Below are positions 21,821-64,000 of a DNA stretch of 64,000 nt, in pieces (the stretch's first letter is position 1; the number at the start of each line of letters is the position of its first letter). Both the position numbers and the translations under genes were made by a program. The notes beneath the pieces are model-generated. The model saw only the letters and a program-made list of their open reading frames with translations, had not been told where the DNA came from and searched no databases. The stretch lies in IMG/VR virus record IMGVR_UViG_3300000976_000008, positions 47,223-111,222 of that record; one strand, given 5' to 3'. The DNA comes from a virus (taxonomy: Duplodnaviria; Heunggongvirae; Uroviricota; Caudoviricetes).

Positions 21821-21827
21821 CAATCTT

Positions 21828-22088: not shown

Positions 22089-22115
22089 CTACCTCCTAAA
22101 GACAATTGACAGAAA

Positions 22116-22549: not shown

Positions 22550-22575
22550 TAAACTATCTCAAATAATCTTTCAAA

Positions 22576-22652
22576 TCACCCAGCCAGGAATTGAACCTGA
22601 ATCTAGCTCCCCATTCGCGGTGAGGATCTCGTGTTACATTACACCACCGGGT
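22576..22652 (-). tRNA. Atypical tRNA with an unassigned anticodon
   Basis: The acceptor CACCCGG/CTGGGTG and the T-arm TCAGG-TTCAATT-CCTGG are clear. The best anticodon hairpin is TCCTCA-CCGCGAA-TGGGGA, which implies GCG (Arg), but C33 and the spacer lengths are non-canonical. Confidence 0.4.
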
Positions 22653-22656
22653 GCGA

Positions 22657-22727
22657 ATACGGGTAGGGAGAGTCGAACTCCCGCTTCCAGGTTGGAAACC
22701 TGGTGTGCTACCATAACACTTCACCCG
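22657..22727 (-). tRNA. tRNA-Gly (anticodon UCC)
   Basis: Acceptor GCGGGTG/TACCCGT, anticodon stem-loop CCAGG-TTTCCAA-CCTGG, T-arm GGGAG-TTCGACT-CTCCC. Confidence 0.75.
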
Positions 22728-22736
22728 CACAATGAC

Positions 22737-23300: not shown

Positions 23301-23302
23301 AT

Positions 23303-23372
23303 TGCTCCACCAAGAATCGAACTCGGGCCTGAAGGACCAAAACCTTCCGTGCTACCATTACACCACAGAGCA
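23303..23372 (-). tRNA. tRNA-Gln (anticodon UUG)
   Basis: Anticodon stem-loop GAAGG-TTTTGGT-CCTTC. T-arm CCGAG-TTCGATT-CTTGG. Confidence 0.75.
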
Positions 23373-23373
23373 G

Positions 23374-23448
23374 TGGCAGGTGTGAGAATCGAACTCACAG
23401 GGGGAATATCTTCCAAACGGCTCATGAGACCGTCCCTACCAGCCTGCC
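23374..23448 (-). ncRNA. Atypical tRNA-like RNA with a CAU anticodon hairpin, no recognisable D-arm and an extra GGAA-GATA-TTCC hairpin
   Basis: Acceptor GGCAGGC/ACCTGCC, hairpin ACGGT-CTCATGA-GCCGT, T-arm GTGAG-TTCGATT-CTCAC. Confidence 0.4.
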
Positions 23449-23727
23449 TTATTTCACCTTCAACTTGATCAGGACCTTGTCAATGACTTCATTGAATGTT
23501 TCAGGATTACCAATCTCAACAGAGCCAAGATCAATCTTCTTCACATTCGCAACATCATGGTCAACAGATTCATAAAGAGTAGTCTGCAAACGATCATTTT
23601 GCACTGAAAAACAAACTGCATTTCTCCCACCGGAGATAGCAAGCTTATCACCATCAATCCTACAAATGAAGCCATTATCGCAAAAATCAGCTTCAATTGC
23701 GTGAAGTGTATCTGTTGTAACTGTCAT
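23449..23727 (-). CDS. Hypothetical protein
   Basis: 92-aa ORF. Confidence 0.3.
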   Translation of the reverse strand: MTVTTDTLHAIEADFCDNGFICRIDGDKLAISGGRNAVCFSVQNDRLQTTLYESVDHDVANVKKIDLGSVEIGNPETFNEVIDKVLIKLKVK

Positions 23728-23733
23728 GTCTAC

Positions 23734-24327
23734 CTAGCAACTGCAAGTGAAAAAATTGCCGCGATTGTGATTGTCAATCTTGGTGCCAGTAATGACTTCA
23801 TAGTGGTTCCAAAATTCATCTGGAGTGCTGTGACCTTCCCACTTTCCCCCATCGCATTGATAATCACCATGCTGCATCCAAGATCGAGCAGCATCCATCA
23901 ATTCATCGTAATGCATATCAGATTTATTGGCGAAATCATCAAGCCAATTCCTCGATATGACATAGCCAACATCGATCTGGAAATATCCACCCTTTGGTGG
24001 CGTCGAAAATGCCGGGTGAGTCCAATGGTGAGCCAGAGAAGTGACACTGTTCTGGTAAAGAAACAACCAAAACCTGTCACCTTTCTTAACTCTTTCGGTT
24101 AAGAATGGGTCAACAATACCGAAGCAGACCGCAGATGGACCAGCCACAGAATCACCATCAACCAAACCAACATGTTCGCCAGGATCAAGGTCACAAGCTG
24201 CAGTCACTGGAGCAATAGCTGAGTGAATTGCATCTCTTGTAGCATTTGATGGCGGAGTTTTTCCAACTTCAACAGCAGACATAACTGTCTCCCTAAGTAG
24301 TACCCCCAGCAGGGTTCGAACCTGCAA
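23734..24327 (-). CDS. Hypothetical protein
   Basis: 197-aa ORF. The annotated start overlaps tRNA-Arg, so the true start is probably the Met near 24282. Confidence 0.4.
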   Translation of the reverse strand: MQVRTLLGVLLRETVMSAVEVGKTPPSNATRDAIHSAIAPVTAACDLDPGEHVGLVDGDSVAGPSAVCFGIVDPFLTERVKKGDRFWLFLYQNSVTSLAHHWTHPAFSTPPKGGYFQIDVGYVISRNWLDDFANKSDMHYDELMDAARSWMQHGDYQCDGGKWEGHSTPDEFWNHYEVITGTKIDNHNRGNFFTCSC

Positions 24328-24374
24328 CCTACGCTTTAGAAGAGCGTTGCTCTATCCAATTGAGCTATGGAGGC
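24301..24374 (-). tRNA. tRNA-Arg (anticodon UCU)
   Basis: Acceptor GCCTCCA/TGGGGGT, anticodon stem-loop ACGCT-CTTCTAA-AGCGT, T-arm GCAGG-TTCGAAC-CCTGC. Confidence 0.75.
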
Positions 24375-24473
24375 ATGATCAAAATAAAAAGATGATTGCT
24401 GCAATCACCCAACCGTAACCAATAGTGATCGATTGTTCATCTTTTGTCCAAGTGAACTTCAATGTGAACATGC

Positions 24474-24869
24474 TCATTTGCGGACTCGTTTACGCGATTT
24501 CTTCCTAATTCTTTTCTTCTTTTTGCAATTTCTCTTGCAGTTGTTAATTTTCTTTTTTGGTTCATCCCAATGAAATTTTAAATGACAATTGGAACAAAGC
24601 ACATCACATTTTGCTATCTCTTCCTTCAATTTCTTCAGAGACCAATTCCTAACAGCAAAAGAAATATTTGCTAATTTTTGTTCTGGATCTCTGTGATGGA
24701 ATTGCAAACAAGCCGGGTGGTTTTCTCCACATTTTGAGCATTTACAAGAACTTTTATAACGTCTGAACCAAGCCTTGACTTTATTACGCTGTTCTGAGAC
24801 TCTAAAAACAAAGCCATCATCAGCTTTTAGATTGTGGACTTTCTTATACTTCCGTTGACCTTTGGCCAT
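24474..24869 (-). CDS. HNH endonuclease
   Basis: CKCSKCGENHPACLQFHHRDP...NISFAVRN...LCSNCH is an HNH motif with paired zinc-binding CxxC. Confidence 0.75.
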   Translation of the reverse strand: MAKGQRKYKKVHNLKADDGFVFRVSEQRNKVKAWFRRYKSSCKCSKCGENHPACLQFHHRDPEQKLANISFAVRNWSLKKLKEEIAKCDVLCSNCHLKFHWDEPKKKINNCKRNCKKKKRIRKKSRKRVRK

Positions 24870-25308
24870 TTGTTATTCCTTGGTTCAAAACTCCTACTTT
24901 AGCTTTGAACCAAAGAATAACAAATATCCTATTCAAGGACTGAAAAGCATGTCATTTAATTATACCCCATACCATTACAGAGCAACCGTTGTCAGAATTT
25001 ATGATGCGGACACCATGACTCTCAAAATTGATTTAGGATTCAAAATCAATTTTGAAGAAAATTTCAGAATTCGTGGAATCAATGCACCAGAAGTAAGAGG
25101 ACCAGAAAAGCAAGAAGGAATAATTGCTAGAGACTGGCTCAGAAACAAATGCCAAAATGGATCTCAAGTCTTCATTGAGACCTTCAAAGATAAAAAGGGA
25201 AAGTACGGTAGATACTTAGCCGATGTCTACTTCAAAGAAAATGATGAATTCTTCAGTGTTGCTGATGAACTCGTGAAACTTGGTTACGCAGTTTACAAGA
25301 ATTACTAA
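24862..25308 (+). CDS. Staphylococcal-nuclease-fold (thermonuclease) protein
   Basis: RIRGINAPE is the SNase catalytic-site motif (RLLGIDTPE-like). The start is probably the internal Met at about 24949. Confidence 0.75.
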   Translation: MAICYSLVQNSYFSFEPKNNKYPIQGLKSMSFNYTPYHYRATVVRIYDADTMTLKIDLGFKINFEENFRIRGINAPEVRGPEKQEGIIARDWLRNKCQNGSQVFIETFKDKKGKYGRYLADVYFKENDEFFSVADELVKLGYAVYKNY

Positions 25309-25730
25309 TGAAATTACAAGCAATCAACGAATCCAATGATCCATTACAATCAGTCGGTGAGTTCGATGTCGTTCTACCATTAGATCCAATGATTCAAAGC
25401 AGAGATGAAGCACTTAAGCATCTCACTGCTCAATTCACAACGGAGCCAGCTCCAGGTGTCACACCAATCAAGGGAATTGTGACTTCATTTGAACCGCCAG
25501 ATGAAAATGGCCTAGTAAACGCCAAAGTCAGAACAACTGTTGAAAGCTACATCAGAAATTCAATCGAGTTCGACATTGGTCCTTACGAAATCCTAAAAGT
25601 TATCAAAGATGCGACAACACCAGAAATTACTGCAGCAGCAATGGAATTCATGAAAACTGGTGATTTTAAAGTCGTCAAACTTGGAGCACCAGGAACAGAC
25701 GCTGATACCACCGCCAAATTAAAATGGTAA
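25308..25730 (+). CDS. Hypothetical protein
   Basis: 140-aa plus-strand ORF, apparently translationally coupled to the nuclease gene. Confidence 0.4.
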   Translation: MKLQAINESNDPLQSVGEFDVVLPLDPMIQSRDEALKHLTAQFTTEPAPGVTPIKGIVTSFEPPDENGLVNAKVRTTVESYIRNSIEFDIGPYEILKVIKDATTPEITAAAMEFMKTGDFKVVKLGAPGTDADTTAKLKW

Positions 25731-25970
25731 TCAGAAAACTGTCTTCAAAGCTTCCCAAACAGTTTTCCATGCAGAAACAGCAGATGAATTCCACTCACTG
25801 AGAAAACCAGATCTCAATAATCTGGGTTTATCTCCTCTTGAGTAGAGATCAACTTTATAATTCTGTTTTTTACCAATTCCTTTACCATCGTTGGTGATGG
25901 TTGCTAAACCAAGTGATTTCGCTTTGCTACCATCACCACCAGGCCAAAGTTCAACTCTCACAACTATCAT
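25731..25970 (-). CDS. Hypothetical small protein
   Basis: 79-aa ORF. Confidence 0.25.
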   Translation of the reverse strand: MIVVRVELWPGGDGSKAKSLGLATITNDGKGIGKKQNYKVDLYSRGDKPRLLRSGFLSEWNSSAVSAWKTVWEALKTVF

Positions 25971-26160
25971 GCGATCTTCCTAAGGAGTATTGACGGTCTG
26001 GCGGGTCTCAGCCAGGTCTTCAATCGTCCAATTATGTCGTTGTTCGACTCAAACAACTTTCAGACTTTCTTAGAATGTCCTTTCGAGTCTCGGCCTCATA
26101 CAACCCACCAGTCTAGTAGGTCTGGTCCGCCCACCCGTCAATACTCTCGTAAATACTCAC

Positions 26161-26472
26161 ATGAATGGCTATGATATAGACGGCGTCCTCAGTTCAGGTC
26201 TAGAACCAAAAGGTGATTTTGTCATCATCTCTGGAAGAACATTTGCAGAATATGACCAACTGTGCCAAGATCTCGCTAAGAAGGCACCGCTCTACATAAG
26301 AGGAAGCGGCAAATTCGGAGACAGAGAAGACGCGGGACGATTCAAGGCAATGATGATCAAGCATCTTGGAGTAAGTCACTACTACGAAGATGATCAAGTT
26401 CAAGCCAGAATCATCATGGAGTTATGCCCAAAGACACAAGTCCACATTCACAGAGCCACCGACAGGATTTGA
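26161..26472 (+). CDS. Small HAD-like (DxDG motif) protein
   Basis: YDIDGVL resembles HAD motif I. The ORF is only 103 aa. Confidence 0.3.
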   Translation: MNGYDIDGVLSSGLEPKGDFVIISGRTFAEYDQLCQDLAKKAPLYIRGSGKFGDREDAGRFKAMMIKHLGVSHYYEDDQVQARIIMELCPKTQVHIHRATDRI

Positions 26473-26525
26473 ACCTGCAACCCGCTCATTACAAATGAGC
26501 CGCACTCCCATTGTGCTACGGTGGC
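26454..26525 (-). tRNA. tRNA-Thr (anticodon UGU)
   Basis: Acceptor GCCACCG/CGGTGGC, anticodon stem-loop GCTCA-TTTGTAA-TGAGC, T-loop TTCAAAT. Confidence 0.8.
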
Positions 26526-26818
26526 TTAACTTTTCAAATTATCAAGGATCAGTGCGATACTGAGTTTTTCTGTATCGCTTCCAGCATCTATTACAACGCC
26601 AAAATTGTCTTTCGAGAATACCCCAAGGATCTAATTGCGATTTTGATCTCGATGGTCTGTAAACTCTGACCATAATCTCGTCAAAATACTGAATCGAATT
26701 CCCTTGGTTCGCTCTTCGTTCTTGTTGTACACGCATAGTAGCACCTTTCAGTTAATTGATAACTAAAAGACGCACCTTCTGCTTTTCATCAAGATCTCCT
26801 GATTAATAGTCATTCGGG

Positions 26819-26940
26819 CGGGACTCGAACCCGCATCAAATGGTGGATTCGAACCACCTTTCCAGCCTTCCGGCCAGCTTGGAACCCAGCCCAAGCCCCG
26901 GCCTTCGCCAGGGGAGTCTCCCAATTCCTCAACCAAACAA
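26819..26940 (-). ncRNA. GC-rich structured element with two consecutive T-arm-like hairpins (tRNA-derived or novel RNA)
   Basis: The minus strand contains GGTGG-TTCGAAT-CCACC followed by GCGGG-TTCGAGT-CCCGC. Neither hairpin has a matching 5' acceptor strand. Local GC is far above the genome background. Confidence 0.35.
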
Positions 26941-26945
26941 CTAAA

Positions 26946-27019
26946 TCGGGATGACATGACTTGAACATGCGACTTCCGCGTCCCAAACGCGACGCTCTAC
27001 CAAACTGAGCTACATCCCG
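26946..27019 (-). tRNA. tRNA-Pro (anticodon UGG)
   Basis: Acceptor CGGGATG/CATCCCG, anticodon stem-loop TCGCG-TTTGGGA-CGCGG, T-arm GCATG-TTCAAGT-CATGT. Confidence 0.8.
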
Positions 27020-27030
27020 TCAAATTAAAG

Positions 27031-27104
27031 CTCCTCAGGTAGGATTCGAACCTACGACATAACGCTTAACAGGCGTCCGCTCTGACCAACTGAGCTACTG
27101 AGGA
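27031..27104 (-). tRNA. tRNA-Asn (anticodon GUU)
   Basis: Acceptor TCCTCAG/CTGAGGA, anticodon stem-loop GACGC-CTGTTAA-GCGTT, T-arm GTAGG-TTCGAAT-CCTAC. Confidence 0.8.
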
Positions 27105-27110
27105 AAATTG

Positions 27111-27296
27111 TTACATTCTTGCGAGACCGTATCCGATTATAAACGCTGCCATTGAATTGTAAATCGCTAAATTACCATTCTGTGGCCATGATACTGAGAA
27201 AGTGAGCATCCCAGCACCAATTAATAACGCAATAACTGCGGCATAATTGGCTCTTTTTGGAGTTTGCTCTTGTTCTGTTTTTTCTTCAGTCATCAT
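27111..27296 (-). CDS. Small membrane protein
   Basis: 61-aa ORF with one hydrophobic helix. Confidence 0.3.
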   Translation of the reverse strand: MMTEEKTEQEQTPKRANYAAVIALLIGAGMLTFSVSWPQNGNLAIYNSMAAFIIGYGLARM

Positions 27297-27306
27297 TAAC
27301 CTTTGT

Positions 27307-27459
27307 TTGGATAGCGGTGCGGAATCGAACCGCAGTCTCTAGTCATCGGCAGGCAATGTCCTCAGAGTTAGCTAACATCCCTAACCTCGTAGTGTTCTTT
27401 CCAGTTGAACTACCGCATGAGCTGACGGAGTGACTTCGAAGCCACTATCCTGATCATCA
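27307..27459 (-). ncRNA. tRNA-like stable RNA of about 153 nt with a 9-bp terminal helix, a canonical T-arm and a large internal insertion
   Basis: 5' GGATAGTGG pairs with 3' CCGCTATCC, just after TGCGG-TTCGATT-CCGCA. An internal hairpin AGTTC-AACTGGAAA-GAACT looks like a D-arm. Confidence 0.4.
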
Positions 27460-27525
27460 ATCTCGTCCTGATGTGTCACCAATCCGAAATTTCACAGTGT
27501 TTTGCCTTAAACTACCGCCCTTAAG

Positions 27526-27597
27526 TGGAAGCGACCGGATTCGAACCGGCAACCACCTGCGTGCAAAGCAGGCACTCTCCCATTGAGTTACGCCCCC
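27526..27597 (-). tRNA. tRNA-Ala (anticodon UGC)
   Basis: Acceptor GGGGGCG/CGCTTCC (with GU pairs), anticodon stem-loop CCTGC-TTTGCAC-GCAGG, T-loop TTCGAAT. Confidence 0.75.
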
Positions 27598-27736
27598 CTA
27601 ATTTATCTCTTTTTGATTCTTTCTGAAGGGTTAGCAGACCGGGGTTTCACCGGCATCTTTCTGATCTTCAACGAGGGGTTTGCAATCCCCAATTTCACAA
27701 ACTGTTTTAATTAAACTACCGCTTTCGCCTTCGAAG

Positions 27737-27851
27737 ATGTGCGGGACGGATTTGAACCGGCGACCTCCTGGTCATGGGAAGTTCATTTTCCACCATCTTA
27801 GTTTCCAAATTCTCCCTCATCAAGTGCTCTGCCTGACTGAGCTACCGCACA
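27737..27851 (-). tRNA. tRNA gene with an insertion of about 41 nt in the anticodon-arm region (intron-like or disrupted)
   Basis: Acceptor TGTGCGG/CCGCACA, D-arm GCTC-AGTCAGGCA-GAGC, variable AGGTC and T-arm GCCGG-TTCAAAT-CCGTC are all canonical. However, 64 nt sit between the D-arm and the variable loop where about 18 are expected. The T-arm is almost identical to that of the adjacent tRNA-Phe. Confidence 0.5.
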
Positions 27852-27856
27852 ATGAG

Positions 27857-27930
27857 TGGTACAGGCCGGATTTGAACCGGCGACCACCTGATTTTCAGTC
27901 AGGCACTCTACCGAGCTGAGTTACTGTACC
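27857..27930 (-). tRNA. tRNA-Phe (anticodon GAA)
   Basis: Acceptor GGTACAG/CTGTACC, anticodon stem-loop CCTGA-CTGAAAA-TCAGG, T-arm GCCGG-TTCAAAT-CCGGC. Confidence 0.8.
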
Positions 27931-28229
27931 AAAATAGCTTGATAAATGGTAAAAGTGGTATGCTTTTCGACTTTAATAATCCGATAAGCATCTTCCATTT
28001 TACACACTATGATATCACCAATTTCAAAACCTTCCATTACAATGATTTCTTCCATACCCGAACAAACGAAATTCGGATCATCTAGAAATGTCTGCCTATC
28101 ATGATGAACATAAAACGCTGATGTGAAACTGGCATTGTAATAGATGGTTTTTGAAATTTTTGGGATACCATTAATTTCATCTGCCCCATCATTTTGTTTC
28201 GTCTGTGGCCATTTTGTTTGATTCTGCAA
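27921..28229 (-). CDS. Hypothetical protein
   Basis: 102-aa ORF lying between tRNA genes. Confidence 0.3.
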   Translation of the reverse strand: MQNQTKWPQTKQNDGADEINGIPKISKTIYYNASFTSAFYVHHDRQTFLDDPNFVCSGMEEIIVMEGFEIGDIIVCKMEDAYRIIKVEKHTTFTIYQAILVQ

Positions 28230-28443
28230 TCAAGGCCAAAGTCTGTGTTGTTTGTTCTGCGAGTCTCGCGGCAAATCCTTCGGGCCACCAGATATCGTGA
28301 GTAACACTCTTTTCCGTAATTTCTTGGCAAGCGGCATCCAAGTGTTTTGCGAGAATTTGCTTAACCGCAAGTTCTTGATCTTTATCCATTATCTTCATCA
28401 ATCTTGAATAAACACACTGGAAGACGAGCATGAAAAATACCAA
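28189..28443 (-). CDS. Hypothetical protein
   Basis: 84-aa ORF. Confidence 0.3.
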   Translation of the reverse strand: MVFFMLVFQCVYSRLMKIMDKDQELAVKQILAKHLDAACQEITEKSVTHDIWWPEGFAARLAEQTTQTLALIAESNKMATDETK

Positions 28444-28588
28444 ATGTCGAACCAGCGAATAGTGAGCCAGACAATACTAAAAATGCAACTAGTGGGTAGT
28501 CTAAGATAGTAGATGTGGCGAAAAATCCTGCTCCAACAAAGGCTCCTATTGCCCCATAAAAAGCAAAAGCTAATAATCGTTCTACCAT
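28382..28588 (-). CDS. Small membrane protein
   Basis: 68-aa ORF, Gly/Ala-rich and hydrophobic. Confidence 0.3.
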   Translation of the reverse strand: MVERLLAFAFYGAIGAFVGAGFFATSTILDYPLVAFLVLSGSLFAGSTFGIFHARLPVCLFKIDEDNG

Positions 28589-28604
28589 CTAAAGTCTCCT
28601 TCAA

Positions 28605-28675
28605 TGACCCATATCGGATTCGAACCGATGTCAGCAGATAGAAAGTCTGCCATGCTACCACTGCACCAATGGGCC
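28605..28675 (-). tRNA. tRNA-Glu (anticodon UUC)
   Basis: Acceptor GGCCCAT/ATGGGTC, anticodon stem-loop GCAGA-CTTTCTA-TCTGC, T-arm ATCGG-TTCGAAT-CCGAT. Confidence 0.75.
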
Positions 28676-31240: not shown

Positions 31241-31669
31241 TCATCTAACATCTCCAGCATCGATGATTTCAATTTCAACGCCACAATTGGGAAATATAAC
31301 TATCATCTCACTATCAGAAATCGTCTGCAAGGCTTGATATCCTTTTGCTTTCAATTTCTCGATATATAACGGTAATGCTTTATAATCTCTATCCATTAAA
31401 ATATCAAAAATTGAATAATCAAATTGATCATTATAATCAACTTTGTAAAGTCTTTCAATTTCGATTTGTACCGCTATAATGGTTGAGCCGTAATTTTTAG
31501 CCCATTCAATATGTGGAGTAAAGAACACACCGTAAGAAGGGATTTCAAAATTTTCTATCGGTTGATTAGTACCATGATACACAATACCAGAAAATTTCTC
31601 TGATATCTGATTTAGTTTCATTTCTATATCCAGCAAAATGGTTAGGATTGCCGTGCCGATCGACACCAA
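31241..31669 (-). CDS. Hypothetical protein
   Basis: 142-aa ORF. Confidence 0.35.
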   Translation of the reverse strand: MVSIGTAILTILLDIEMKLNQISEKFSGIVYHGTNQPIENFEIPSYGVFFTPHIEWAKNYGSTIIAVQIEIERLYKVDYNDQFDYSIFDILMDRDYKALPLYIEKLKAKGYQALQTISDSEMIVIFPNCGVEIEIIDAGDVR

Positions 31670-31693
31670 GGAATGCCTCTAGATTATTTACCA

Positions 31694-32290
31694 TTATTCC
31701 ATCACTGTATCGCCGCCAACACCCCAAAGTCCTAGGACTTTACACTGGCTGAAATCACTTAGAGTGACTCTTATAGTTTTGACGCCGAACCTTTTCAACT
31801 GTTCGCGGAGTTTCTTGGTCAACTCTTTATCTATCGTTTGACCCTCTTCTTGCAGATATTTGAAGTCATACTTGATTATAACTTCTTTTACAGCGGCCAG
31901 TGCCAAATCTCTGATCGTGTCTTCATAGTCGTATGTTTCGACCAATAATTTCACAACGTCGGCTATCTCATATACTAATATACCACTTACACCAATAGTC
32001 TTATTATCAGCGGTACACAGATATTGAGCTTCTAGATTTGTCGTCTGCCTCTTGATGGGGACGACTTCGCATTCGGTAACCAAAGGCCAGTAGAAGTGGA
32101 TGCCGGTCTTGGTGAATCTAAATGGGCTAAATCGTGGAAATCTAATCCCATTTAAATGGGTAATCATTATTATATCAGTTCCGCACGCAAATTTGACTCC
32201 TGCGTGTGTAGCTCTAACCAAGATGATATGGGGGAACACTCGAATGAATGTCCTTATTATATCACCTAACCACCCTAATGCAGCTTCCAC
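31694..32290 (-). CDS. SPFH/band-7 (stomatin/prohibitin-like) domain protein
   Basis: VPIKRQTTNLEAQYLCTADNKTIGVSGILVYEIADV is the typical SPFH core. Confidence 0.5.
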   Translation of the reverse strand: MEAALGWLGDIIRTFIRVFPHIILVRATHAGVKFACGTDIIMITHLNGIRFPRFSPFRFTKTGIHFYWPLVTECEVVPIKRQTTNLEAQYLCTADNKTIGVSGILVYEIADVVKLLVETYDYEDTIRDLALAAVKEVIIKYDFKYLQEEGQTIDKELTKKLREQLKRFGVKTIRVTLSDFSQCKVLGLWGVGGDTVME

Positions 32291-32310
32291 AATTGATCCG
32301 TTATTTTAGG

Positions 32311-32646
32311 TCAATCTCCAGAAGCACCAACTTTCCGGCTTCCTGTTTCCTTCTTCAACAGGATTTTCATCATTAAGACGCTGCCTTCTGTTGTTGCTAT
32401 CACGTAGATGACGCTCATTGGAACGAGCCAGAAATAGCTTCCAGATTCGAATGCACCCCAAATCTGTTTCCAAACAATCATATGACAGACGAGCCAAACG
32501 CTATTTGAACACCAAGCTGCTTTCCGGTGGTAAGAGGGATCTCCTGAATTTCTCGATCTGCTTGTCCAGGTGAAAGCCATATTTTGGCCAAAAGCTACTA
32601 GGGCTAGTAAAGCTAACCAGCCTATTTGCTGAAGAATTTCTGTCAT
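32311..32646 (-). CDS. Membrane protein, possibly NfeD-like partner of the SPFH protein
   Basis: Two hydrophobic helices, placed immediately upstream of the SPFH gene. Confidence 0.35.
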   Translation of the reverse strand: MTEILQQIGWLALLALVAFGQNMAFTWTSRSRNSGDPSYHRKAAWCSNSVWLVCHMIVWKQIWGAFESGSYFWLVPMSVIYVIATTEGSVLMMKILLKKETGSRKVGASGD

Positions 32647-33977
32647 TGTGGAGGCCGTTTCGATCCTGTTGGTTTCCCAGTATAACTATTAAGATTAACT
32701 TGAAGACGAGCCATTGGTCCAGTGTCATAATCCCAAACGTAAGCCATCGCTCCTCGTTTTTGCCAGTTGAATGACTTCGTCCTATGCCATTGATTTGGCG
32801 GAGTCAATGCCGGAAGATATTCGACACTAACACCTTGTTCTTCCATAGTGTGAGGCTTCGATGATCCCTTTCGGTGTTGATCACCTAAATGCCATTCCCT
32901 ATAAGAAGTCTCAGCCCAATCCTGGGGCCGTTCATTCGCCATAAGTGCTGCCAATCGTATAGGGGCAACACTATGACCATGCTCGTAGCCAATCAAATTG
33001 GTTCCGAATCTGTGGAATTTGTAAGGAGAGGCGGATGCATCAACTTCAACATTCGCATCATTCCGATAATAAGCCTTCAGAACTCTAGCCAAAGTGAAAG
33101 CTGCTTGAGTATCGTGATTACCAGGTACCTCAATAATCTTGGTATTACCATATTTCTTGATAGCATCAATCATCTGGATCGCTAGCATTTCTGCACGTTC
33201 ATAGACATGATGCCAAGAAACAGCTTCTGGTTGTAATGTCCCTGCAGTTGTGGCATGATTGATGCCATCATGATGCATATAATCATTACCAAATGGGAAT
33301 ATTACCTCTTCAAATGGACCATACTTACTTGCCAGTTTAAGCAAGCCGTCTACCGCCCACATGCAAATCGATTCACAATCGTCTAAGCTCCATGCTTGGT
33401 CAGATGACGGTTTAAAGCACTGGAGACCAAGGTGGGGGTCCATTATTGAGATTTCAAGACATCGACGAGTGCTTTTTACAGCCTTTGGTCTTTTAATCTT
33501 AGAGACTATCGGAGAAGACTTTGAAATCCGATCAATTAATGACTCTAACGCGAGAGCCTCGTTTATTTTTCTCTTCAGCCTTATCTTAATTTGGCGAAGA
33601 GGAGTCTTCCAAAGTTCTTGAGATCCATCTCTTTTTATCTTTCCGGCAACCTCCCAGTTATTGACAGTCACTTCAGAAACTTCCCAGATTTCAAGATCGA
33701 TATCAGAATCTGCTAGGAGGTCTTCTGGAGTAGAGATTTTCGTACCAACATAGTCTATGCTGATACTATTTGCAGTTTGAGTTTTCTTGTTTTTCTCTTT
33801 TGGCTTTCCGTCTTTTCCTGTCAAATTAAGTTCAATCGCTTTGTTGTAGCGACCAAACAATGTCGATCGTGGTATACCCAAAGTCCTTGCGGCCTCTGAA
33901 ATATTACCATTGTGTTCGTCGACGGTTTCCTTAGCTTGAAGTAGTAGTACAGTGTCTACCTGTCTCGGCATAACCAA
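32643..33977 (-). CDS. HTH-domain plus calcineurin-like metallophosphoesterase
   Basis: The N-terminal Fis-type HTH is NISEAARTLGIPRSTLFGRYNK. GNDYMHHD and GNHD are phosphoesterase motifs. Confidence 0.5.
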   Translation of the reverse strand: MVMPRQVDTVLLLQAKETVDEHNGNISEAARTLGIPRSTLFGRYNKAIELNLTGKDGKPKEKNKKTQTANSISIDYVGTKISTPEDLLADSDIDLEIWEVSEVTVNNWEVAGKIKRDGSQELWKTPLRQIKIRLKRKINEALALESLIDRISKSSPIVSKIKRPKAVKSTRRCLEISIMDPHLGLQCFKPSSDQAWSLDDCESICMWAVDGLLKLASKYGPFEEVIFPFGNDYMHHDGINHATTAGTLQPEAVSWHHVYERAEMLAIQMIDAIKKYGNTKIIEVPGNHDTQAAFTLARVLKAYYRNDANVEVDASASPYKFHRFGTNLIGYEHGHSVAPIRLAALMANERPQDWAETSYREWHLGDQHRKGSSKPHTMEEQGVSVEYLPALTPPNQWHRTKSFNWQKRGAMAYVWDYDTGPMARLQVNLNSYTGKPTGSKRPPQ

Positions 33978-44475: not shown

Positions 44476-45160
44476 GAAACTTACTCGCTTCTTTCCAATT
44501 ACTTATATGTGTCGGTATCTTAGCACCACCGGGAGTAAGACCTTTGAAATAATCCAGATCTTTTTTGTAATCAGGACGATTCCGTTTACGTCTCCATTCT
44601 TCATGCCCAGCCGGATATCCATCTATAAACTGCATTTCAGCAGCACCAGCAGAACCACGGTATAAGAAAATTTGAGCTATTGGTTGGCCCATGTAAACAG
44701 TAAAATCGCATGGTTGATTTAGAATGAAAACTAAACCAAAATGTCCAACATTCCACCATGCCTCTATCACAGCTTCCATACATGAAAAAGGAGTACACCT
44801 CTCATTGGGAATACCCTTCACATAAACGAAGTCACCGGGATCATCAGTTACTGGTATGAATTTAGCCTGAACAGTGAACCCACCGAAACTCGCATGATCA
44901 TCAACATCGTAGTGACTACTTTTCTCAATATGATGAATCACAGCACGGCGGTGCTTATCTCCATCCCATGTGACTCTGAAAGTTCCTGGTGATCTGATAT
45001 AATATCCTAAGCTATTGGCCATAATGAGCGGCAAACAATGGCGTGCATGGTTCTTGGTTGCTCTATTATCTTCAAACCACTTCTTGTTCCTTGTAGCTTT
45101 AATAGGAACCAGACTCTTGTCAAAATCTGGAGACAAATGGAATTTTATTTGATTACCCAT
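44459..45160 (-). CDS. Hypothetical protein, possibly a second cupin/oxygenase-like
   Basis: 233-aa ORF with HYDVDDH and later His residues. Confidence 0.3.
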   Translation of the reverse strand: MGNQIKFHLSPDFDKSLVPIKATRNKKWFEDNRATKNHARHCLPLIMANSLGYYIRSPGTFRVTWDGDKHRRAVIHHIEKSSHYDVDDHASFGGFTVQAKFIPVTDDPGDFVYVKGIPNERCTPFSCMEAVIEAWWNVGHFGLVFILNQPCDFTVYMGQPIAQIFLYRGSAGAAEMQFIDGYPAGHEEWRRKRNRPDYKKDLDYFKGLTPGGAKIPTHISNWKEASKFHGDNR

Positions 45161-46002
45161 TAAGCAAGCTTTTTGAATGGCGGAACTAGGTTAGGACCTT
45201 CTTGCATCATCCCATTAACCTTATATTTCATCGTAAGATCATTTATTTCTTTCGATGAAAAAGCCACTTCTTCAGCAAATTTCTTTTGAATATACAATCT
45301 ATTCGCTAAAAGTTTGGGACAAAGACTTAAATCAATAAGCAACATATTGAACCCGAAAGTTCTTCTGCCATTAGCCTTCAAGAATTTGTGTAATTCTCCC
45401 AGATCAGCCAACAATTTCGCACTCTTTTTAGGACCGATACCTTTATAACCGACAATCGAGTCCGCTTTATCGCCCACTAAAGATTTCTGCAGAACAGGAC
45501 TTATCGTCGGTGTTTCTACATCCTCTTTGCGATGTGGATGGTAGACTTTCGAACTTGAAAAACGAAAAGGAATCTGCGTCATATCACTATCAGTTGAAAC
45601 AATCACTGACGGATAAGGATGCAATTGCTCAACAGCGGAATAGATCAGATCATCCGCTTCCATCGTATCACGTGAATATTGCCTAACATTCATATGTTCA
45701 AGAAATTTCATTGCTACTTCGGTGGTTGACGATAGCTCTGCAGAAATGTCTTCGATATTAGGGTTATTATCTCTATCCTTATAAGTAGGATGTAACTTTC
45801 GTCTCCAAACAGTCTTTCTGGGTGCATCCCAAAAAACGTGCACAGAAACAGGATCATGAATTCTTATGAAACTTGTCAATTGACGAAGAAAGATCACAAA
45901 ATAGTGATATTTAACATCATATCGCCTATCATTCTTCGTAGCAAAAATAGCACGATACATGATATTTCTGGCATCGATTAACAAAGCTGGTCTAGCACTC
46001 AT
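45160..46002 (-). CDS. rnh: 5'-3' exonuclease / flap endonuclease (T4 RNase H homolog)
   Basis: LLIDARNIMYRA, EADDLIY, STDSDMTQI and the H3TH motif GYKGIGPKKSAKLL align to T4 RNase H ICLIDFSQIA / EADDHIA / SSDGDFTQL. Confidence 0.85.
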   Translation of the reverse strand: MSARPALLIDARNIMYRAIFATKNDRRYDVKYHYFVIFLRQLTSFIRIHDPVSVHVFWDAPRKTVWRRKLHPTYKDRDNNPNIEDISAELSSTTEVAMKFLEHMNVRQYSRDTMEADDLIYSAVEQLHPYPSVIVSTDSDMTQIPFRFSSSKVYHPHRKEDVETPTISPVLQKSLVGDKADSIVGYKGIGPKKSAKLLADLGELHKFLKANGRRTFGFNMLLIDLSLCPKLLANRLYIQKKFAEEVAFSSKEINDLTMKYKVNGMMQEGPNLVPPFKKLA

Positions 46003-57639: not shown

Positions 57640-58566
57640 CTATGGCTGGCTACCTCTCTGAGCATATTTCAAAAGTCTAATGATACAAGAACCAACATCC
57701 ATGCACCAATCCCATTGTGCAGAACTACCTACACTAAATATACCACGATTCTCTACTGCATCTAATTTAGGAATATCTCCAAGAGGAATAGCACCTTCTA
57801 TAGATGTGCCATCAAGAATCTCGAATTTATCCATAAAGCTCATAAAATAAATCCCAGGATTTGGGATCTCATTGTGGCAATAGAAAAGATATCTATTTGG
57901 TGCAACGTTGGTGACCTTATAAAAATCAAACAATTGATCGGTCACCAAAGTCTGATTTGAGCCTTCAAAATCCAGACTCTCTGTTTCCATATGCAAATAA
58001 TGGATCGTCCTAGCTTTTAGAGAATGCTCAGTATTCATCAACCCAAGAAGAGCATCTAATGGGATGGTGCTCACACACTGATCAAAATCTTCTCTGACAC
58101 CATCTCTAACAAAATGATGATCGCCCACCTCAGTTATTAATCCTTTTCCGGATTCAGCTTTGAGTTCTTCTATAAATGTTTGTTGTAGAGATCCATATAA
58201 ATTATTGGCACGGATATCATAAACCCTCAAATCCATCCTACTCTTCATATATGGGACAGTTTGAGATGGTACATCCATCCCAAACAATTTATGTGCCCAA
58301 TCTTTGCAAAGGCCATCGTCCCATTGGCGGACCAATCCACCCCCAACAGACCATGCCAATTTATATTCGAATTTCTGCAAGCTGCGACTCTTCATTAGAT
58401 CTAGAATAAATTGATCTAATGTTTCGTCGCAGATTATGAAATTATCATCTAAGGCTGGATTAAAGCTGAAAAAACGACTCCTGTAGAATGGAATTACCTT
58501 CCATGAGTCGCCTAGAATAATTCTGGCCAGTAGGGCTACAATCCCCGATCCGAAAATCACATTCAT
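57640..58566 (-). CDS. FAD/NAD(P)-binding Rossmann-fold protein
   Basis: The N-terminal GxGxxA dinucleotide-binding motif is IFGSGIVALLA. Confidence 0.4.
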   Translation of the reverse strand: MNVIFGSGIVALLARIILGDSWKVIPFYRSRFFSFNPALDDNFIICDETLDQFILDLMKSRSLQKFEYKLAWSVGGGLVRQWDDGLCKDWAHKLFGMDVPSQTVPYMKSRMDLRVYDIRANNLYGSLQQTFIEELKAESGKGLITEVGDHHFVRDGVREDFDQCVSTIPLDALLGLMNTEHSLKARTIHYLHMETESLDFEGSNQTLVTDQLFDFYKVTNVAPNRYLFYCHNEIPNPGIYFMSFMDKFEILDGTSIEGAIPLGDIPKLDAVENRGIFSVGSSAQWDWCMDVGSCIIRLLKYAQRGSQP

Positions 58567-59465
58567 TAATCATCGTCTTCTTCGGGAGACATTCCATCCG
58601 CCGCTTCAACATTTGATTTTGGTTTCGTGACCGTCAGAGGACTTTCCTCTGGCTTTTCTGTAACTTCTTCTCCATCATCCGAAGCCTTGGCTTCGTCTTT
58701 CTTAGGAGCTTTCTTGGCGGTTTTCTTTTTCTTCTTCGGCTTCTTTTTAGGCTCGTCCTTGGCCTCTTCGTCCTTGACTACCTCGTCCTTGACTACCTCG
58801 CCCTTGACTTCCTCGTCCTTGACTTCCTCGTCCTTGATTACCTCTTCTTTAGGTTCTTCATTGACTTCCTCGCTCTTGACCTCTTCGACTACTTCGTCCT
58901 TGATTTCCTCGCTCTTAGACTCTTCATTATCAGATTTTTCGCCCTCAGGCTCATCTTTCTTAGGTTCCTTAGGTTCGCCATCTTCGCCAACCTCCTTCTT
59001 CTCTGCATCAGGATCTAGCTCAGAGTCGTCTGTCTTCTTCTCATCTGGGTTTTCTGGGTTTTCATTTGTTCCAGAACCTTTCAACCTGTCTGCGACAGTT
59101 GATCCATCACCCAAATCAATTGATTCATCTGGGTCTTGCAAAAGAGGATCTAATTCATGCTCTTCAATCCGCCCTTCCTCAAGAGGATTCATGAACACAT
59201 CTTGTGGAGGTTCCCATTCTGGATTGCAATTAACGCAAGACCATTCAATCACAGGAAATGGCGGTTCAGGAAGCGATACGATAATATCAACTCCTTGACC
59301 GCAAGATGGGCAAATAGTCGAAAGCTTGGTCGGTCGGACCATGACGCCTTCAGCATTTTGCATAGCAGAATTGACAGGTTCAGAATCAAACTCATATGGT
59401 CTCGCCGTAGTCTCTTGACCATCCATGAGAACATCAACGAGAGAAAATGGGTTGTACTCAGTCAT
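58566..59465 (-). CDS. Zinc-ribbon protein with a long acidic Lys/Glu/Asp/Val tandem-repeat tail
   Basis: CPSCGQG...CVNCNPEWE is followed by EEVKDEEVKGEVVKDEVVKDEE repeats. The DNA carries tandem repeats of about 15 nt at 58770-58860. Confidence 0.45.
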   Translation of the reverse strand: MTEYNPFSLVDVLMDGQETTARPYEFDSEPVNSAMQNAEGVMVRPTKLSTICPSCGQGVDIIVSLPEPPFPVIEWSCVNCNPEWEPPQDVFMNPLEEGRIEEHELDPLLQDPDESIDLGDGSTVADRLKGSGTNENPENPDEKKTDDSELDPDAEKKEVGEDGEPKEPKKDEPEGEKSDNEESKSEEIKDEVVEEVKSEEVNEEPKEEVIKDEEVKDEEVKGEVVKDEVVKDEEAKDEPKKKPKKKKKTAKKAPKKDEAKASDDGEEVTEKPEESPLTVTKPKSNVEAADGMSPEEDDD

Positions 59466-60698: not shown

Positions 60699-60891
60699 GA
60701 CGATCAGCATAATCACTTGCAAGAGCTGCAAGATGTGGATTAGTAAAGACTCTTTCCGGTTCCAACGAGTCTGCATCCAAGATTGTTTTGGCGATTTCGC
60801 CTGTGGGCACGACATCACGCATCATCAAATAGAGGAAAGTTACTAGCTTACTTTTGCTCTTTATGTCGTTCTTTGTGGAGGAGTTTGACAA
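60673..60891 (-). CDS. Hypothetical small protein
   Basis: 72-aa ORF. Confidence 0.25.
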   Translation of the reverse strand: MSNSSTKNDIKSKSKLVTFLYLMMRDVVPTGEIAKTILDADSLEPERVFTNPHLAALASDYADRLIDEVDEV

Positions 60892-63610
60892 TTGTTTGAT
60901 TCCTTCTCATCGTAAAAGTGCCTCTCATCTCATCATAATCAACCCACATCTCAATCCCTGTACCAACTAATAGAGATTCAGGATTTTGCAAAGCTAATTC
61001 ATTGTTGAAAATGAGAACTAAGGCTGTTTGAACACCGTCACTAACAAATAACCTAGCATACTCTTTGTTATTCTTAGATACGGCGAATTCTAAATCAGTG
61101 ATCACAACTTCAAGTTTAACTCCGTCATACTGACCACCACGCTTCGCAGCATCAATATCACAATTACCCTGTGTGAGATAAAGATCAAGTGGTGAATGCA
61201 AATAGTAACCAAGATATTGCTTCTCAAAAGCCAGAGTCTCTTCTAAAGTGAATTCTTTGTCAGAGTAAAGACTGATCACATTATCTCTACTGTCATTTGG
61301 TTTTGGCTTCCAATTCTTGATCTTCGCAGGGATTTTGCGGCGATTTGGATATTGCTTCTTATACTCTGCCTCTTGCCGCTGCCTCTCCTCTTCAATTGTT
61401 GTTTCGTTCCAACCATCTTTTTCAACCAGTTTGGCCCTGATTTCTCTTCGAAGTTGAGTTATATCCTTGCCACTACAGTATTTATATTCATACCATTTCC
61501 AAGTCGCATAAATGTTCTCATGTCCTTCAAGAACAGTGAATGCACCAAGTTTGATAAACCTTTCAAGAACGGTTTTGCTCTTACCGCCCTTCTTTTCAAT
61601 AAAATCATCAATATCAGTAAAATCGCCACGCCCAGCAAAACTTTCGGCTGCACTTTCACCAATTCCTTTAATGCCGATCATCCCCTGATTCACAACATCA
61701 TTTGTAACAGTAAAGTCTGTCGTCAAATTGAAAATGTTGATAGTTCCAAAGACAACTGTATCAGCTGGCTTTTCAGGATTGTAAGATCCACTATATGTAA
61801 CATGATCAGTCGGTTTCCATTCTTCAGATCTAGCAATGCCCATATATCTTACTAGTTTATCCGAATGACAATCGCTCATGACAGCGGCCCACCACTCTGG
61901 AGCAAAGTGAGCTTTCAACCATAAACATCTCTGAGCAACTAAGCAATAAGAAACAGCGTGAGAACGATTGAACGCATAGCGACCAAATGTTTCCATCTTG
62001 GTCCACCAGTTCTCTGATTCTTTCTGTCCTAAAACTCTAGATGCACCAACAATCCAATGCTCTCTAATGGGTTTCAACTTATGAACCCATTTCTTAGCAA
62101 CAGCTTTCCTAGCCTCTTGTGCTTGTGGTGCGGTAAAACCAGCTACTCGTTGCCAAATTGCCTGCAATTGTTCCTGATAGACAATTACACCATAGGTATC
62201 CTTCAAAACATCCAATATCTTAGGATGTAATCGATTCTTCCAAGAATCCGATCCACCATCACGATTCTCTACAGCTTCCGGTATAGAAGCCATCGGTCCT
62301 GGGTGCCCCATAGCATTGAAAAGCATCAAATCTTCAAAGTTTCTAACCCCATTCGCCAAAATGCTCTTCGCCAGATCAGTATCAAATTGGAAAATACCAT
62401 CTGTTTTCTGTTCATTAGCAAGACGTAATGCATCTTCATCATTGAGACTAATATAATGCTTGTTGCCCTCTGAATCGAAAAAATGACCAGCCCTATTCAA
62501 ATTAGGATTAATATCGTCCCATCCAGTCATAGCTGGTGGTAGTTCCTGACCGTGTTCAGATTCAGATTCTTTTCTCTCACCAAACGTGATACCTCTATTT
62601 TGCTCAATAAGCCTGCAACACTCGAAGATATATTTAAGCGTTTTGAGGCCAAGAATATCCCACTTAATATAACCAAATTTTGAAAGCTGAGTGTTCCTAC
62701 CCTCGGACCACATGCTTACCCAATAACCTTTGTTGTTACTCTTGGCTAAAGGAATATTTCCGAACAAAGTACGATCAGCGATAATGAGGGCACCAGCGTG
62801 CATACCCATGTTTCGCACTCGACCAATGATCTGAACAGCATAATCTATAACATCTGGATATTTAGCAGTAAACGAGGCAAGTTGCTCATATTCAGCTATC
62901 AGCTTACCGATAGTCGGGCCATCTGTAGCTTCTGATTGACAATTTGGACATCTGACTTCATTGTGAGAAGTACCACATTCTTTATCTTCGCCATCGGTTT
63001 TGATGCGACCTTTACAATTTGAATAACCACCATCTTTCAAATCATCAACATCATCCGGCAATTTAGTTGTAAGCTCATAGGCTTCAGCCTTATCAACCAT
63101 ACCAGTGGCAACACAAACATCGATCACAGATGATTTGAATTTATATGTCTGCCACGTTCCGACAGAACAAACAGGCCCATACCCATCAGTTATGCCCATC
63201 CCATACTTCTCAGCAGCATAGGTTTTAATTGGGTCGCGAGCTTCAGGAAGACAGTCGAGATCAATATCCGGCATATCCGGATCTTTTACAAAGTCTGGCG
63301 GAACAACTCCGTTCCTTTCTCGATATTTAACAACTTCAGCAGCTTTGACAGTACAAAGAATCTCATCATCTCTACCACTAATCGGGTCACCTTCGGCCAT
63401 ACCAAGCAACCAAGGCAAGACCAAACTATTGGGATTTGATCCAAATCGCTTCTTATCGTTGTAGAGATTCAGCCAATATGTAGTAGCACCTTGCTTCTCG
63501 ATCTCCTTAAATTCAAACTTCAAGCGTTTTGCGTAAGTTTCATCTAAAGATCGACCGTCAAGCTCACCATTAGCAAGCTCTTTTAATTCTTCCCAAGTGA
63601 CGCTAGCCAT
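60848..63610 (-). CDS. DnaE-family (Pol III alpha-type, C-family) DNA polymerase catalytic core lacking the N-terminal PHP domain
   Basis: Aligned to E. coli DnaE: [25 protein letters not shown] ~ [38 protein letters not shown] ~ [26 protein letters not shown] ~ PDFDVDFC (catalytic Asp pair); [10 protein letters not shown] ~ [20 protein letters not shown] ~ Gx[20 protein letters not shown] ~ KMDFLGLRTLT. The ORF begins at the equivalent of about DnaE residue 290. Confidence 0.8.
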   Translation of the reverse strand: [920 protein letters not shown]

Positions 63611-63987
63611 ACTTTATACTCTTCGTATTTCTCCGGATGCTTACTCTTTACATGCAAAGTCCGACCGGGTGTACTATTAATAGGATGAGTACAATACGGA
63701 CAACATAAAACTTCTTCCGGATTTTGTCTCGGGATTTCTCTCTTCGGCAAAGGTGGTGCATCTTTGAACTGAACTCTCGGTTTCCCGTTTTCATCGTAGA
63801 GAGCATCGACAGATTCCCAATCAATCGCCCAAGGATATGATGATTGGTGATTGCCTTCGCTGTCTTTTTTCACATCAGACAGATAAACATAACAGTGCTT
63901 TTTGAAAGCTTTCGCTAGAACTTCCTGATGACCTTTTCGATTCTTTACTCTATGGTGTGATAACACTCTTTTAGAATATCTTGGCAC
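63583..63987 (-). CDS. Hypothetical basic protein with a C-terminal CxxC
   Basis: 134-aa ORF upstream of the DnaE-like gene. It is not a PHP domain. Confidence 0.3.
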   Translation of the reverse strand: MPRYSKRVLSHHRVKNRKGHQEVLAKAFKKHCYVYLSDVKKDSEGNHQSSYPWAIDWESVDALYDENGKPRVQFKDAPPLPKREIPRQNPEEVLCCPYCTHPINSTPGRTLHVKSKHPEKYEEYKVWLASLGKN

Positions 63988-64000
63988 AATAAGAAGAACG

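Follow-up and report, generated by a model that had tools for sequence, protein, structure and literature searches.

A DnaE-type DNA polymerase encoded by two genes in a widespread lineage of giant marine phages, with a putative active site divided between them

Gene organization of the locus

The window analysed here is a stretch of 64,000 nucleotides (positions 47,223 to 111,222) of the caudoviricete virus record IMGVR_UViG_3300000976_000008. Close to its end lies a gene for a 920-aa C-family DNA polymerase, called dnaE-C here, which the original prediction described as a stand-alone, PHP-less DnaE core. Beyond the window edge the sequence is continued by the Logan locus L001, which matches the window base for base throughout the overlap. 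There, 1.55 kb upstream of dnaE-C, lies a second gene (dnaE-N, 472 aa) that encodes a PHP domain and the N-terminal part of the palm (palm-N). A separate PHP gene was among the things that the original prediction had proposed to look for, and its presence together with palm-N means that the enzyme does have a PHP domain but is encoded in two parts. The replisome can still be called unusual, as had been suggested. The reason, however, is an active site that appears to be divided over two polypeptides, and not the loss of a domain. Window-edge effects can disguise a split gene as a domain loss.

The gene order is up227, dnaE-N, orfA (160 aa), orfB (146 aa), orfC (201 aa), dnaE-C and dn72, all on one strand (Table 1). 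Adjacent genes overlap by 1–44 nt, with a single gap of 52 nt, and this packing on the same strand suggests co-transcription and translational coupling. The open reading frame (ORF) directly upstream of dnaE-C, first read as 63583..63987, was rightly said not to be a PHP domain, but it is incomplete, because the window ends inside the gene. In full this is orfC, which encodes a C2H2 zinc-finger protein. The dnaE-C protein is recorded on a 408-kb JGI contig and on a 155-kb Logan contig, and the two assemblies give an identical protein. A DNA search with 24 kb of the window against annotated phages gave no match, and the nearest annotated phage proteins are less than 32% identical.

Table 1. Coordinates of the features. 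Positions refer to the window unless another locus is named; aa, amino acids.
Feature	Position	Strand	Description
dnaE-C, C-terminal piece of the split DnaE, 920 aa	60848..63610	minus	degenerate palm-N copy, catalytic palm, thumb, fingers, HhH, OB
N' segment, dnaE-C residues 1-111	63278..63610	minus	degenerate duplicate of the palm N-terminal helices and P-beta-1/alpha-2; NPN replaces the GRGS loop
PDIDLDC, catalytic strand P-beta-2	63251..63271	minus	D115, D117 = E. coli D401, D403; aligned to Taq SMPDIDTDF
Cys-rich insert C199..C212..H216..C221-P-x-C224, thumb region	62939..63016	minus	C199, C212, C221, C224 invariant, H216 nearly; modelled with three short strands at 197-211
GMHAGALII palm motif (E. 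coli GKHAGGVVI region)	62780..62806	minus	H271, A274 invariant; aligned to Taq 'svhaagvvia'
K316-W-D318	62657..62665	minus	third catalytic Asp (E. coli D555) and K553 equivalent; all three invariant; aligned to Taq 'lkmdflglrtl'
Fingers domain PF17657 (DNA_pol3_finger), residues 385-524	62039..62458	minus	Pfam E 4e-29; includes the R501/K502/K506/K507 basic cluster
Helix-hairpin-helix DNA-binding module HHH_6 (PF14579), residues 629-697	61520..61726	minus	33 bits vs 25.6 cutoff
C-terminal OB fold of dnaE-C	60896..61123	minus	
orfC, 201 aa, C2H2 zinc finger	63583..64000 (in-window 3' two-thirds)	minus	overlaps dnaE-C start by 28 nt
orfB, dead RNase H fold (predicted)	window-equivalent 64188..64628 (L001 8983..9423), outside window	minus	
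orfA	window-equivalent 64625..65107, outside window	minus	
dnaE-N, 472 aa	window-equivalent 65160..66578, outside window	minus	PHP and palm-N with GS loop; 1.55 kb upstream of dnaE-C
up227, 227 aa	L001 6375..7058, window-equivalent 66553..67236		overlaps dnaE-N start by 26 nt
Three-polypeptide DnaE loci	L030 10102..12960; L037 4864..7582; L038 10304..13824; L042		
Family-A polymerase-like protein, 433 aa	48033..49334	minus	PF00476, last third of profile only, 36.6 bits vs 34.3 cutoff; phrog_17
Separate FEN gene	45160..46002		
Fourteen tRNA genes among small ORFs	14904..28675	minus (coding strand)	Met, Ile, Leu, Val, Arg x2, Gly, Gln, Thr, Pro, Asn, Ala, Phe, Glu
Free-standing LAGLIDADG_2 homing-endonuclease gene	9214..10008	minus	
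Free-standing HNH homing-endonuclease gene	20086..20676	minus	inside tRNA region
Three adjacent genes	31241..33977	minus	ART-PolyVal-like ADP-ribosyltransferase (weak, 25 bits), SPFH/Band-7, SbcD/Mre11-like exonuclease

Domain structure of the two polypeptides

The Pfam palm family DNA_pol3_alpha (palm/'NTPase') matches residues 4–321 of dnaE-C (E 3e-20), and the fingers, HhH and OB domains follow. The protein terminates directly behind the OB fold, and nothing in it corresponds to the tau-binding tail of the E. coli enzyme. No Pfam match to a PHP domain was found in dnaE-C even at E<=1, so the reading of this ORF as a C-family palm and fingers chain that itself lacks PHP was borne out. From residue 113 onward it corresponds to positions 401–1057 of the NCBIfam model for E. 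coli-type DnaE. The score of 277 bits against an equivalog cutoff of 1002 marks it as a divergent C-family polymerase and not as an orthologue-grade DnaE.

The three motifs on which the original prediction relied, PDIDLDC, GMHAGALII and KWD(ILGLKTL), are all present at the positions it gave (Table 1). GMHAGALII had been assigned to the fingers; it sits in the palm. On proper alignment no catalytic aspartate is lost: D115, D117 and D318 are all kept. Across 70 dnaE-C homologs these three are invariant, as are D119, K316, R501, K502, K506, K507, Y545, F547, N548 and H551; P114 and C120 of the catalytic strand are invariant in the same number of sequences. Residues Y545, F547, N548 and H551 form an HLH motif just past the fingers domain. 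The thumb region carries a Cys-rich insert that canonical DnaE does not have, and it is probably a zinc ribbon that would bind zinc. Very low confidence in the structural model of dnaE-C is confined to the palm loops 264–271 and 302–307 and to a short segment at 350–352.

The PHP domain of dnaE-N (PF02811, E 1e-35) comprises residues 16–227, and residues 356–458 match the first 98 positions of the palm profile (E 2e-20). The two proteins complement each other along full-length references. On phrog_405, the PHROG profile of full-length DnaE (1190 positions), dnaE-N spans positions 41–439 and dnaE-C 440–1045. Against known structures, dnaE-N aligns to residues 6–417 of Mycobacterium tuberculosis (Mtb) DnaE1 and stops at FERFLNPER. 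The alignment of dnaE-C to the Thermus enzyme begins at its own residue 112 (DMPDIDLD), which is Thermus residue 460 (SMPDIDTDF). This complementary coverage of profile and structure indicates a gene that is split and not truncated.

All nine PHP metal ligands of dnaE-N (H16, H18, D27, H52, E77, H118, C173, D257 and H259) are identical to those of Mtb DnaE1 in the alignment, and the positions are at least 90% conserved among 120 dnaE-N homologs. A full ligand set is typical of the replicative DnaE1 and PolC and not of DnaE2 or DnaE3 (Timinskas et al., PMC3919608). With its ligand set complete, the PHP domain probably proofreads as a 3'-5' exonuclease, like that of Mtb and Thermus DnaE1.

Division of the active site

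The palm-N segment of dnaE-N contains GWPFSPRGSAGGSLVC and LSFDRFLSPSR, which correspond to the GS motif (E. coli R362-G363-S364) and to the equivalents of R390 and R396. The GS loop itself reads PRGSAGGS, with R424-G425-S426 as the motif. These three residues, together with R452 and R458, are invariant in 35 dnaE-N homologs. At the corresponding position dnaE-C has F-G-S-N-P-N; in its family the GS is not conserved and the NPN is. Each of the two proteins thus conserves precisely the catalytic residues that are missing from the other.

The break sits between the palm strands P-beta-1, which bears the GS loop, and P-beta-2, which bears the DxD motif. In a preprint from 2026 on E. coli Pol III by electron cryo-microscopy, the GS motif is on P-beta-1 and D401/D403 are on P-beta-2. 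The GS motif and R390 touch dGTP there, and the E. coli equivalents of the basic finger residues and of the HLH residues of dnaE-C also contact it. In the same work the R362A and K553A mutants were inactive, and R390A was 27-fold impaired. Since the GS, R390 and R396 equivalents lie on dnaE-N while the Asp triad, the K553 equivalent and the finger residues lie on dnaE-C, the cut, as judged from these alignments, bisects the polymerase active site.

The duplicated junction

The original prediction had dnaE-C begin directly where the PHP domain ends. This holds by similarity only: residues 1–111, termed N' here, are a degenerate copy of palm-N, and the true segment is on dnaE-N. N' has the conserved helical consensus Y..RL.FE..EIEKQGA..YW...NPN.L.LPWLLGM..DPI, in which N59, N61 and L63 are (nearly) invariant. 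It is folded confidently in the model, with a predicted local distance difference test (pLDDT) score of 84–94.

Several alignments place N' over palm-N. The Pfam match to dnaE-C begins at residue 4, which is position 6 of the palm profile. When fused DnaE genes were searched by tblastn, the dnaE-C alignment reached back, from query residues q4–q23, over DNA that is also matched by the tail of dnaE-N; this overlap on the same DNA was found in Sujidade and in about 30 fused IMG/VR loci. N' and the dnaE-N tail are collinear in a profile–profile comparison (hhalign, E 0.0045, 72 columns, 29% identity), and BLASTP gives E 0.001. The dnaE-N protein ends with a conserved RGGYMLN(V/L)xMP tail. When the ungapped tblastn alignment to the fused locus L045 is extended in register, the tail falls on the catalytic strand, and L463, V465 and M467 take the places of its three Asp residues. 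As far as the sequences can tell, both pieces carry a copy of the junction segment, each degenerate where the other is intact. A junction duplicated and degenerated in this complementary manner points to secondary fission of a full-length gene.

Distribution of the split genes

A large protein database clustered at 90% identity contains, among the matches listed, more than 120 clusters of dnaE-C homologs of ~880–1000 aa, down to 47% identity. None of them has a PHP domain, and some have inteins. At least 120 clusters of dnaE-N homologs (423–539 aa, down to 64% identity) were found there as well, with no fused protein among the matches listed. Many homologs of the two proteins are on contigs of identical length, some of them 320–408 kb long; about 37 contigs have both pieces, and dnaE-N is consistently the better conserved. 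An exhaustive search of 1.8 billion representatives extends the PHP-less, N'-bearing and GS-less layout to proteins of ~800–920 aa at 32–35% identity.

We surveyed 80 IMG/VR loci with a dnaE-N alignment, 31 of them at 46–82% identity and 49 at about 30%. The split architecture is present in 31/31 of the closer loci, on contigs of up to 395 kb, and in 30 of these dnaE-C lies 0.8–4.1 kb downstream of dnaE-N on the same strand. In the remaining locus, L018 (IMGVR_UViG_3300013121_000020, 354 kb), dnaE-N precedes orfB and an orfC with two fingers, and there is no dnaE-C within 8 kb downstream. None of the 49 distant loci has the split layout. In 43 of them the dnaE-N frame stays open for ~1,100 codons, giving one fused ORF, and the other six end at a contig edge.

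In a distant subgroup (L030, L037, L038 and L042), N' is an ORF of its own of 131–152 aa and the catalytic part is a third ORF. The three pieces fall at palm positions 4–98, ~13–91 (weak, E~0.05) and 101–260 by Pfam. The catalytic ORF of ~700 aa lies 0.15–1 kb downstream of the N' ORF and opens just before DIDxD. The separate N' ORFs bear a β-rich tail of ~55 aa (TLEDGS.VS.P...L..GDE) without a Pfam match, and a search of the tails in L030, L037 and L038 gave no Hint or intein match. Since N' is found as its own ORF in these four loci, it is a separable module, and yet it is always kept.

Inteins occur at several sites in both proteins. In dnaE-N they follow residue ~425, in the GRG^S loop (L025, L033, L034 and P0225), or residue ~258, in the PHP NDxHY motif (L039 and L040). 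In dnaE-C the sites are 549/550 (L022, L028, L039 and L040), ~441 (L026 and L034) and ~480 (L024). The proteins P0015, P0036 and P0112 likewise carry inteins, and the inserts give Hint, LAGLIDADG and intein-splicing matches. The ORF of P0225 stops ~100 aa into the insert, which may be a split or broken intein.

Genes between and beside the halves

An orfA-sized ORF comes after dnaE-N in nearly all split loci. An iterated hidden Markov model search found orfB in 24/30 split loci, and orfC is present in 12 loci of the closer subclade. Pfam and PHROG gave no match for orfA, orfB or up227. The predicted fold of orfB (AlphaFold2, pLDDT 88.9) is a type-1 RNase H; Foldseek aligns it to Halobacterium RNase H1 (4e19) with E 9e-10 and a template modelling score of 0.73–0.81. 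Of the catalytic RNase H1 carboxylates (D10, E48, D70 and D134 in E. coli), the orfB family has nearly lost D10 (present in 2/24), D70 (1/24) and D134 (0/24). We take orfB to be a catalytically dead RNase H-fold protein on this predicted structure and alignment. The zinc finger of orfC is at its C-terminus, and a homolog matches zf-C2H2 at 26.5 bits. The intervening genes are not homing endonucleases.

Their conservation argues that orfA, orfB and orfC are members of the polymerase module. They are probably co-expressed accessory subunits, orfC in the closer subclade. Upstream of dnaE-N, up227 is conserved in the closer loci at 23–49% identity and may be a further member.

Replication genes in the window

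The neighbouring replication genes named in the original prediction (gp32, RNase H, DnaB and RecA) were recovered. The window encodes gp32, a FEN/RNase H-type 5'-3' exonuclease, a RecA/UvsX-like protein and a DnaB-family helicase, together with a weak UvsY-like match. The T4-like context stands in part: besides these T4-type replication and recombination genes there are T4 gp13/gp15-like neck proteins and a tail sheath. A gp43-type polymerase may still be encoded elsewhere; the ~84 kb examined of the ~408-kb genome showed neither a family-B polymerase nor DnaQ, a clamp or a clamp loader. The window has a second polymerase-like gene, which the original prediction did not mention. Its product, a family-A polymerase-like protein of 433 aa, may be a small gap-filling polymerase partnering the separate FEN.

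Comparison with known systems

Concatenated, dnaE-N and dnaE-C have the same domain order and content as Mtb DnaE1 (5lew/7pu7) and the Thermus Pol III α subunit (2hpi). They share with bacterial DnaE1 the PHP domain with nine ligands, the β-NT palm with GS, DxD and a further D, and the thumb, fingers, HhH and OB domains. The identity is 22–27%, and the phage enzyme differs in its two chains, the duplicated junction, the Cys4 insert and the lack of a tau tail.

A split phage Pol III α is already known. Iyer, Anantharaman, Krishnan, Burroughs and Aravind (2021, PMC7824862) described a split minimal form in T4-like jumbo phages (their group 2.2), likewise jumbo myoviruses, with an N-terminal NTP-binding protein and a C-terminal Mg2+- and template-binding protein. 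The halves were predicted to reconstitute the enzyme, and split phage Pol III modules were proposed to resemble ancestral, modular replicases; the duplicated junction of our pair speaks for a later fission instead. The boundary between the NTP-binding and the Mg2+-binding subdomains is the same as here (GS loop versus DxD). However, that type is minimal, without PHP or other Pol III domains, and its genes are distant from each other and stand alongside a PolB. By this description dnaE-N and dnaE-C are set apart, as they have the full domain set, lie 1.55 kb apart and form a conserved module.

In actinophages (Rhodococcus Trina gp101/gp102 and ChewyVIII gp72/gp70; Corynebacterium P1201 gp60/59/58) the PHP domain is also on a separate gene immediately upstream. 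The break there is at the PHP/palm border (~residue 303–310), with neither a junction duplication nor conserved intervening genes. Trina gp102 has ARGSAGGS and PDIDIDI on one chain, so that its active site is intact, whereas in dnaE-N and dnaE-C these motifs are on different chains. The cyanobacterial DnaE is encoded in two genes too (dnaE-n/dnaE-c), but it is cut in the fingers and healed by trans-splicing; our pair has no intein blocks at the junction, and its ends overlap in homology. A phage C-family polymerase without a detectable PHP match, like dnaE-C, is found in Pbunavirus-type phages (vB_PaeM_PAO1_Ab27 ORF74, 1035 aa). Unlike dnaE-C, ORF74 is itself matched by the palm-N of dnaE-N (q296/391-458, including the GS loop) and therefore has the GS on the polymerase chain.

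Weinheimer and Aylward (2022) reported PF07733 as the sole distinguishing domain of the largest marine jumbo-phage cluster, with its architecture left undescribed. The paper on phage PaBG was considered as a precedent and rejected, since it concerns the clamp and clamp-loader genes and not the α subunit. In open-access papers and preprints we found no earlier account of a DnaE of full length that is divided at GS|DxD and has both a duplicated junction and conserved genes between the halves.

Assembly model and alternatives

From the gene structure, domain content, motif distribution, conservation and synteny we infer that dnaE-N and dnaE-C probably associate non-covalently into one DnaE1-like polymerase, with an active site made from both chains, which would be the replicative polymerase of the genome. 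In such a complex dnaE-N would supply PHP proofreading and the dNTP-binding half of the site (the GS loop and the R390 and R396 equivalents). The dnaE-C chain would supply the two-metal Asp triad (D115, D117 and D318), the K553 equivalent, and the thumb, fingers, HhH and OB domains, and with them DNA binding and processivity. Proofreading by the PHP domain would act in cis within the assembled complex. The duplicated copies of the junction, N' and the RGGYMLNxKM tail, are probably the docking interface or clasp.

We also considered a more elaborate form of this assembly, which we regard as possible though doubtful. The two proteins would form an obligate heteromer whose chains are joined through domain swapping at the duplicated junction. 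P-beta-1 with the GS of dnaE-N and the DxD of dnaE-C would form the one live site, and N' with its NPN and the L463/V465/M467 strand of dnaE-N would form a dead pseudo-site that serves as the clasp. With orfA, orfB and (in one subclade) orfC added, the assembly would amount to a Pol III core of several subunits that is specific to phages, with three polymerase polypeptides in L030, L037, L038 and L042.

Several observations weigh against a two-chain replicase. The homology statistics between N' and palm-N are individually weak (E 0.001–0.05), though several independent alignments agree. The folded N', with N59 and N61 at the GS-equivalent loop, may fill the canonical palm-N site and so exclude the palm-N of dnaE-N; dnaE-C could then be self-sufficient with a variant loop. 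The absence of dnaE-C within 8 kb of dnaE-N in L018 means that linkage is not obligatory. Finally, with a PolA-like protein present and ~84 kb of the ~408-kb genome covered, another polymerase could be the main replicase.

The main alternative, close to the original prediction, is that of two independent enzymes. The NPN loop of N' would replace the GS and make dnaE-C self-sufficient, and dnaE-N would be a separate PHP nuclease or pyrophosphatase acting in trans, or a loose proofreader like E. coli epsilon. N' is indeed kept throughout the wider superfamily, including the PHP-less relatives at 32–35% identity; it folds confidently, and N59, N61 and L63 are near-invariant. PHP-less DnaE-like polymerases are known in cultured phages, such as the Pbunavirus ORF74, and the two genes are unlinked in L018. 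This explanation, however, leaves the invariant GS loop and the R390 and R396 equivalents on a protein without catalytic Asp residues unexplained. R362A abolishes the E. coli activity, and dnaE-C has no equivalent of that Arg-Gly-Ser. The PHP-less proteins of the Pbunavirus and Trina types hold a true GS loop on the polymerase chain, and the dnaE-C family does not. We therefore consider two independent enzymes unlikely.

It is also rather improbable that the split DnaE serves as an accessory enzyme for repair or translesion synthesis, with replication carried out by a gp43-like family-B enzyme encoded elsewhere or by the PolA-like protein of the window. The split minimal Pol III of Iyer et al. 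does accompany a PolB (PMC7824862), the NCBIfam scores are far below the DnaE equivalog cutoffs, and the PolA-like gene (PF00476, 36.6 bits) and the share of the genome examined leave room for another replicase. Yet dnaE-C sits in a replication and recombination cluster with DnaB, gp32, FEN and RecA, and the intact set of PHP ligands fits a replicative DnaE1/PolC and not DnaE2/DnaE3 (PMC3919608). The PolA-like protein covers the last third of its profile only and looks like a gap-filling partner of FEN, and neither the window nor its flank showed a PolB.

Joining of the halves after translation by a split intein, as in cyanobacterial DnaE, is very improbable even in a family rich in inteins. 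The dnaE-N protein ends in ...RGGYMLNVKMPSPIN and dnaE-C starts with MASVTWEEL; there is no Cys/Ser/Thr +1 context; neither protein has an intein, Hint or splicing-block match at E<=1; N' is homologous to palm-N and not to an IntC; and since the junction segments overlap in homology, ligation would yield a duplicated segment. A frameshifted or mis-assembled single dnaE can be set aside: dnaE genes fragmented by sequencing errors are known (PMC3919608) and the dnaE-like locus of Cellulophaga phiST shows an unannotated gap, but the same architecture recurs in at least 120 clusters per piece from independent metagenomes and in 31/31 related loci, three conserved genes occupy the intervening 1.5 kb, both pieces are strongly conserved and the Logan and JGI assemblies agree on the protein, and this breadth of conservation effectively refutes an artefact.

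C-family replicases are regarded as single-chain catalytic subunits. If the two proteins do assemble into one polymerase, an ancient and widespread lineage would share a nucleotidyltransferase site over two chains and would show where the fold can be cut and yet work. A third chain, present in some relatives, bears nothing but the duplicated adaptor. The pair would also be a natural system for studying how PHP proofreading is coupled to polymerization, and a scaffold for protein-fragment complementation. Annotation is affected as well: hundreds of metagenomic entries labeled as DNA polymerase III α, with lengths of ~900 aa and ~470 aa, would be halves of one enzyme.

Other features of the window

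Further genes in the window encode GroES, UDG and many glycosyltransferases. The tRNA genes and the free-standing homing-endonuclease genes are listed in Table 1. Of the three adjacent genes at 31241..33977, the SbcD/Mre11-like exonuclease matches phrog_704 (E 1.5e-57) and has an N-terminal Fis-type helix-turn-helix. A 299-aa protein (58566..59465, minus strand) carries a zinc-ribbon-like CxxC...CxxC segment in its N-terminal part; behind it comes a long low-complexity tail, acidic and rich in Lys, with EEVKDE repeats, and the protein matches no family. About 9 kb beyond the window end (L001 1..1032), a gene for a 534-aa protein with a match to Volactin (PF25216, archaeal actin-like) adjoins a radical SAM/SPASM gene and glycosyltransferases; it may encode a phage actin homolog.

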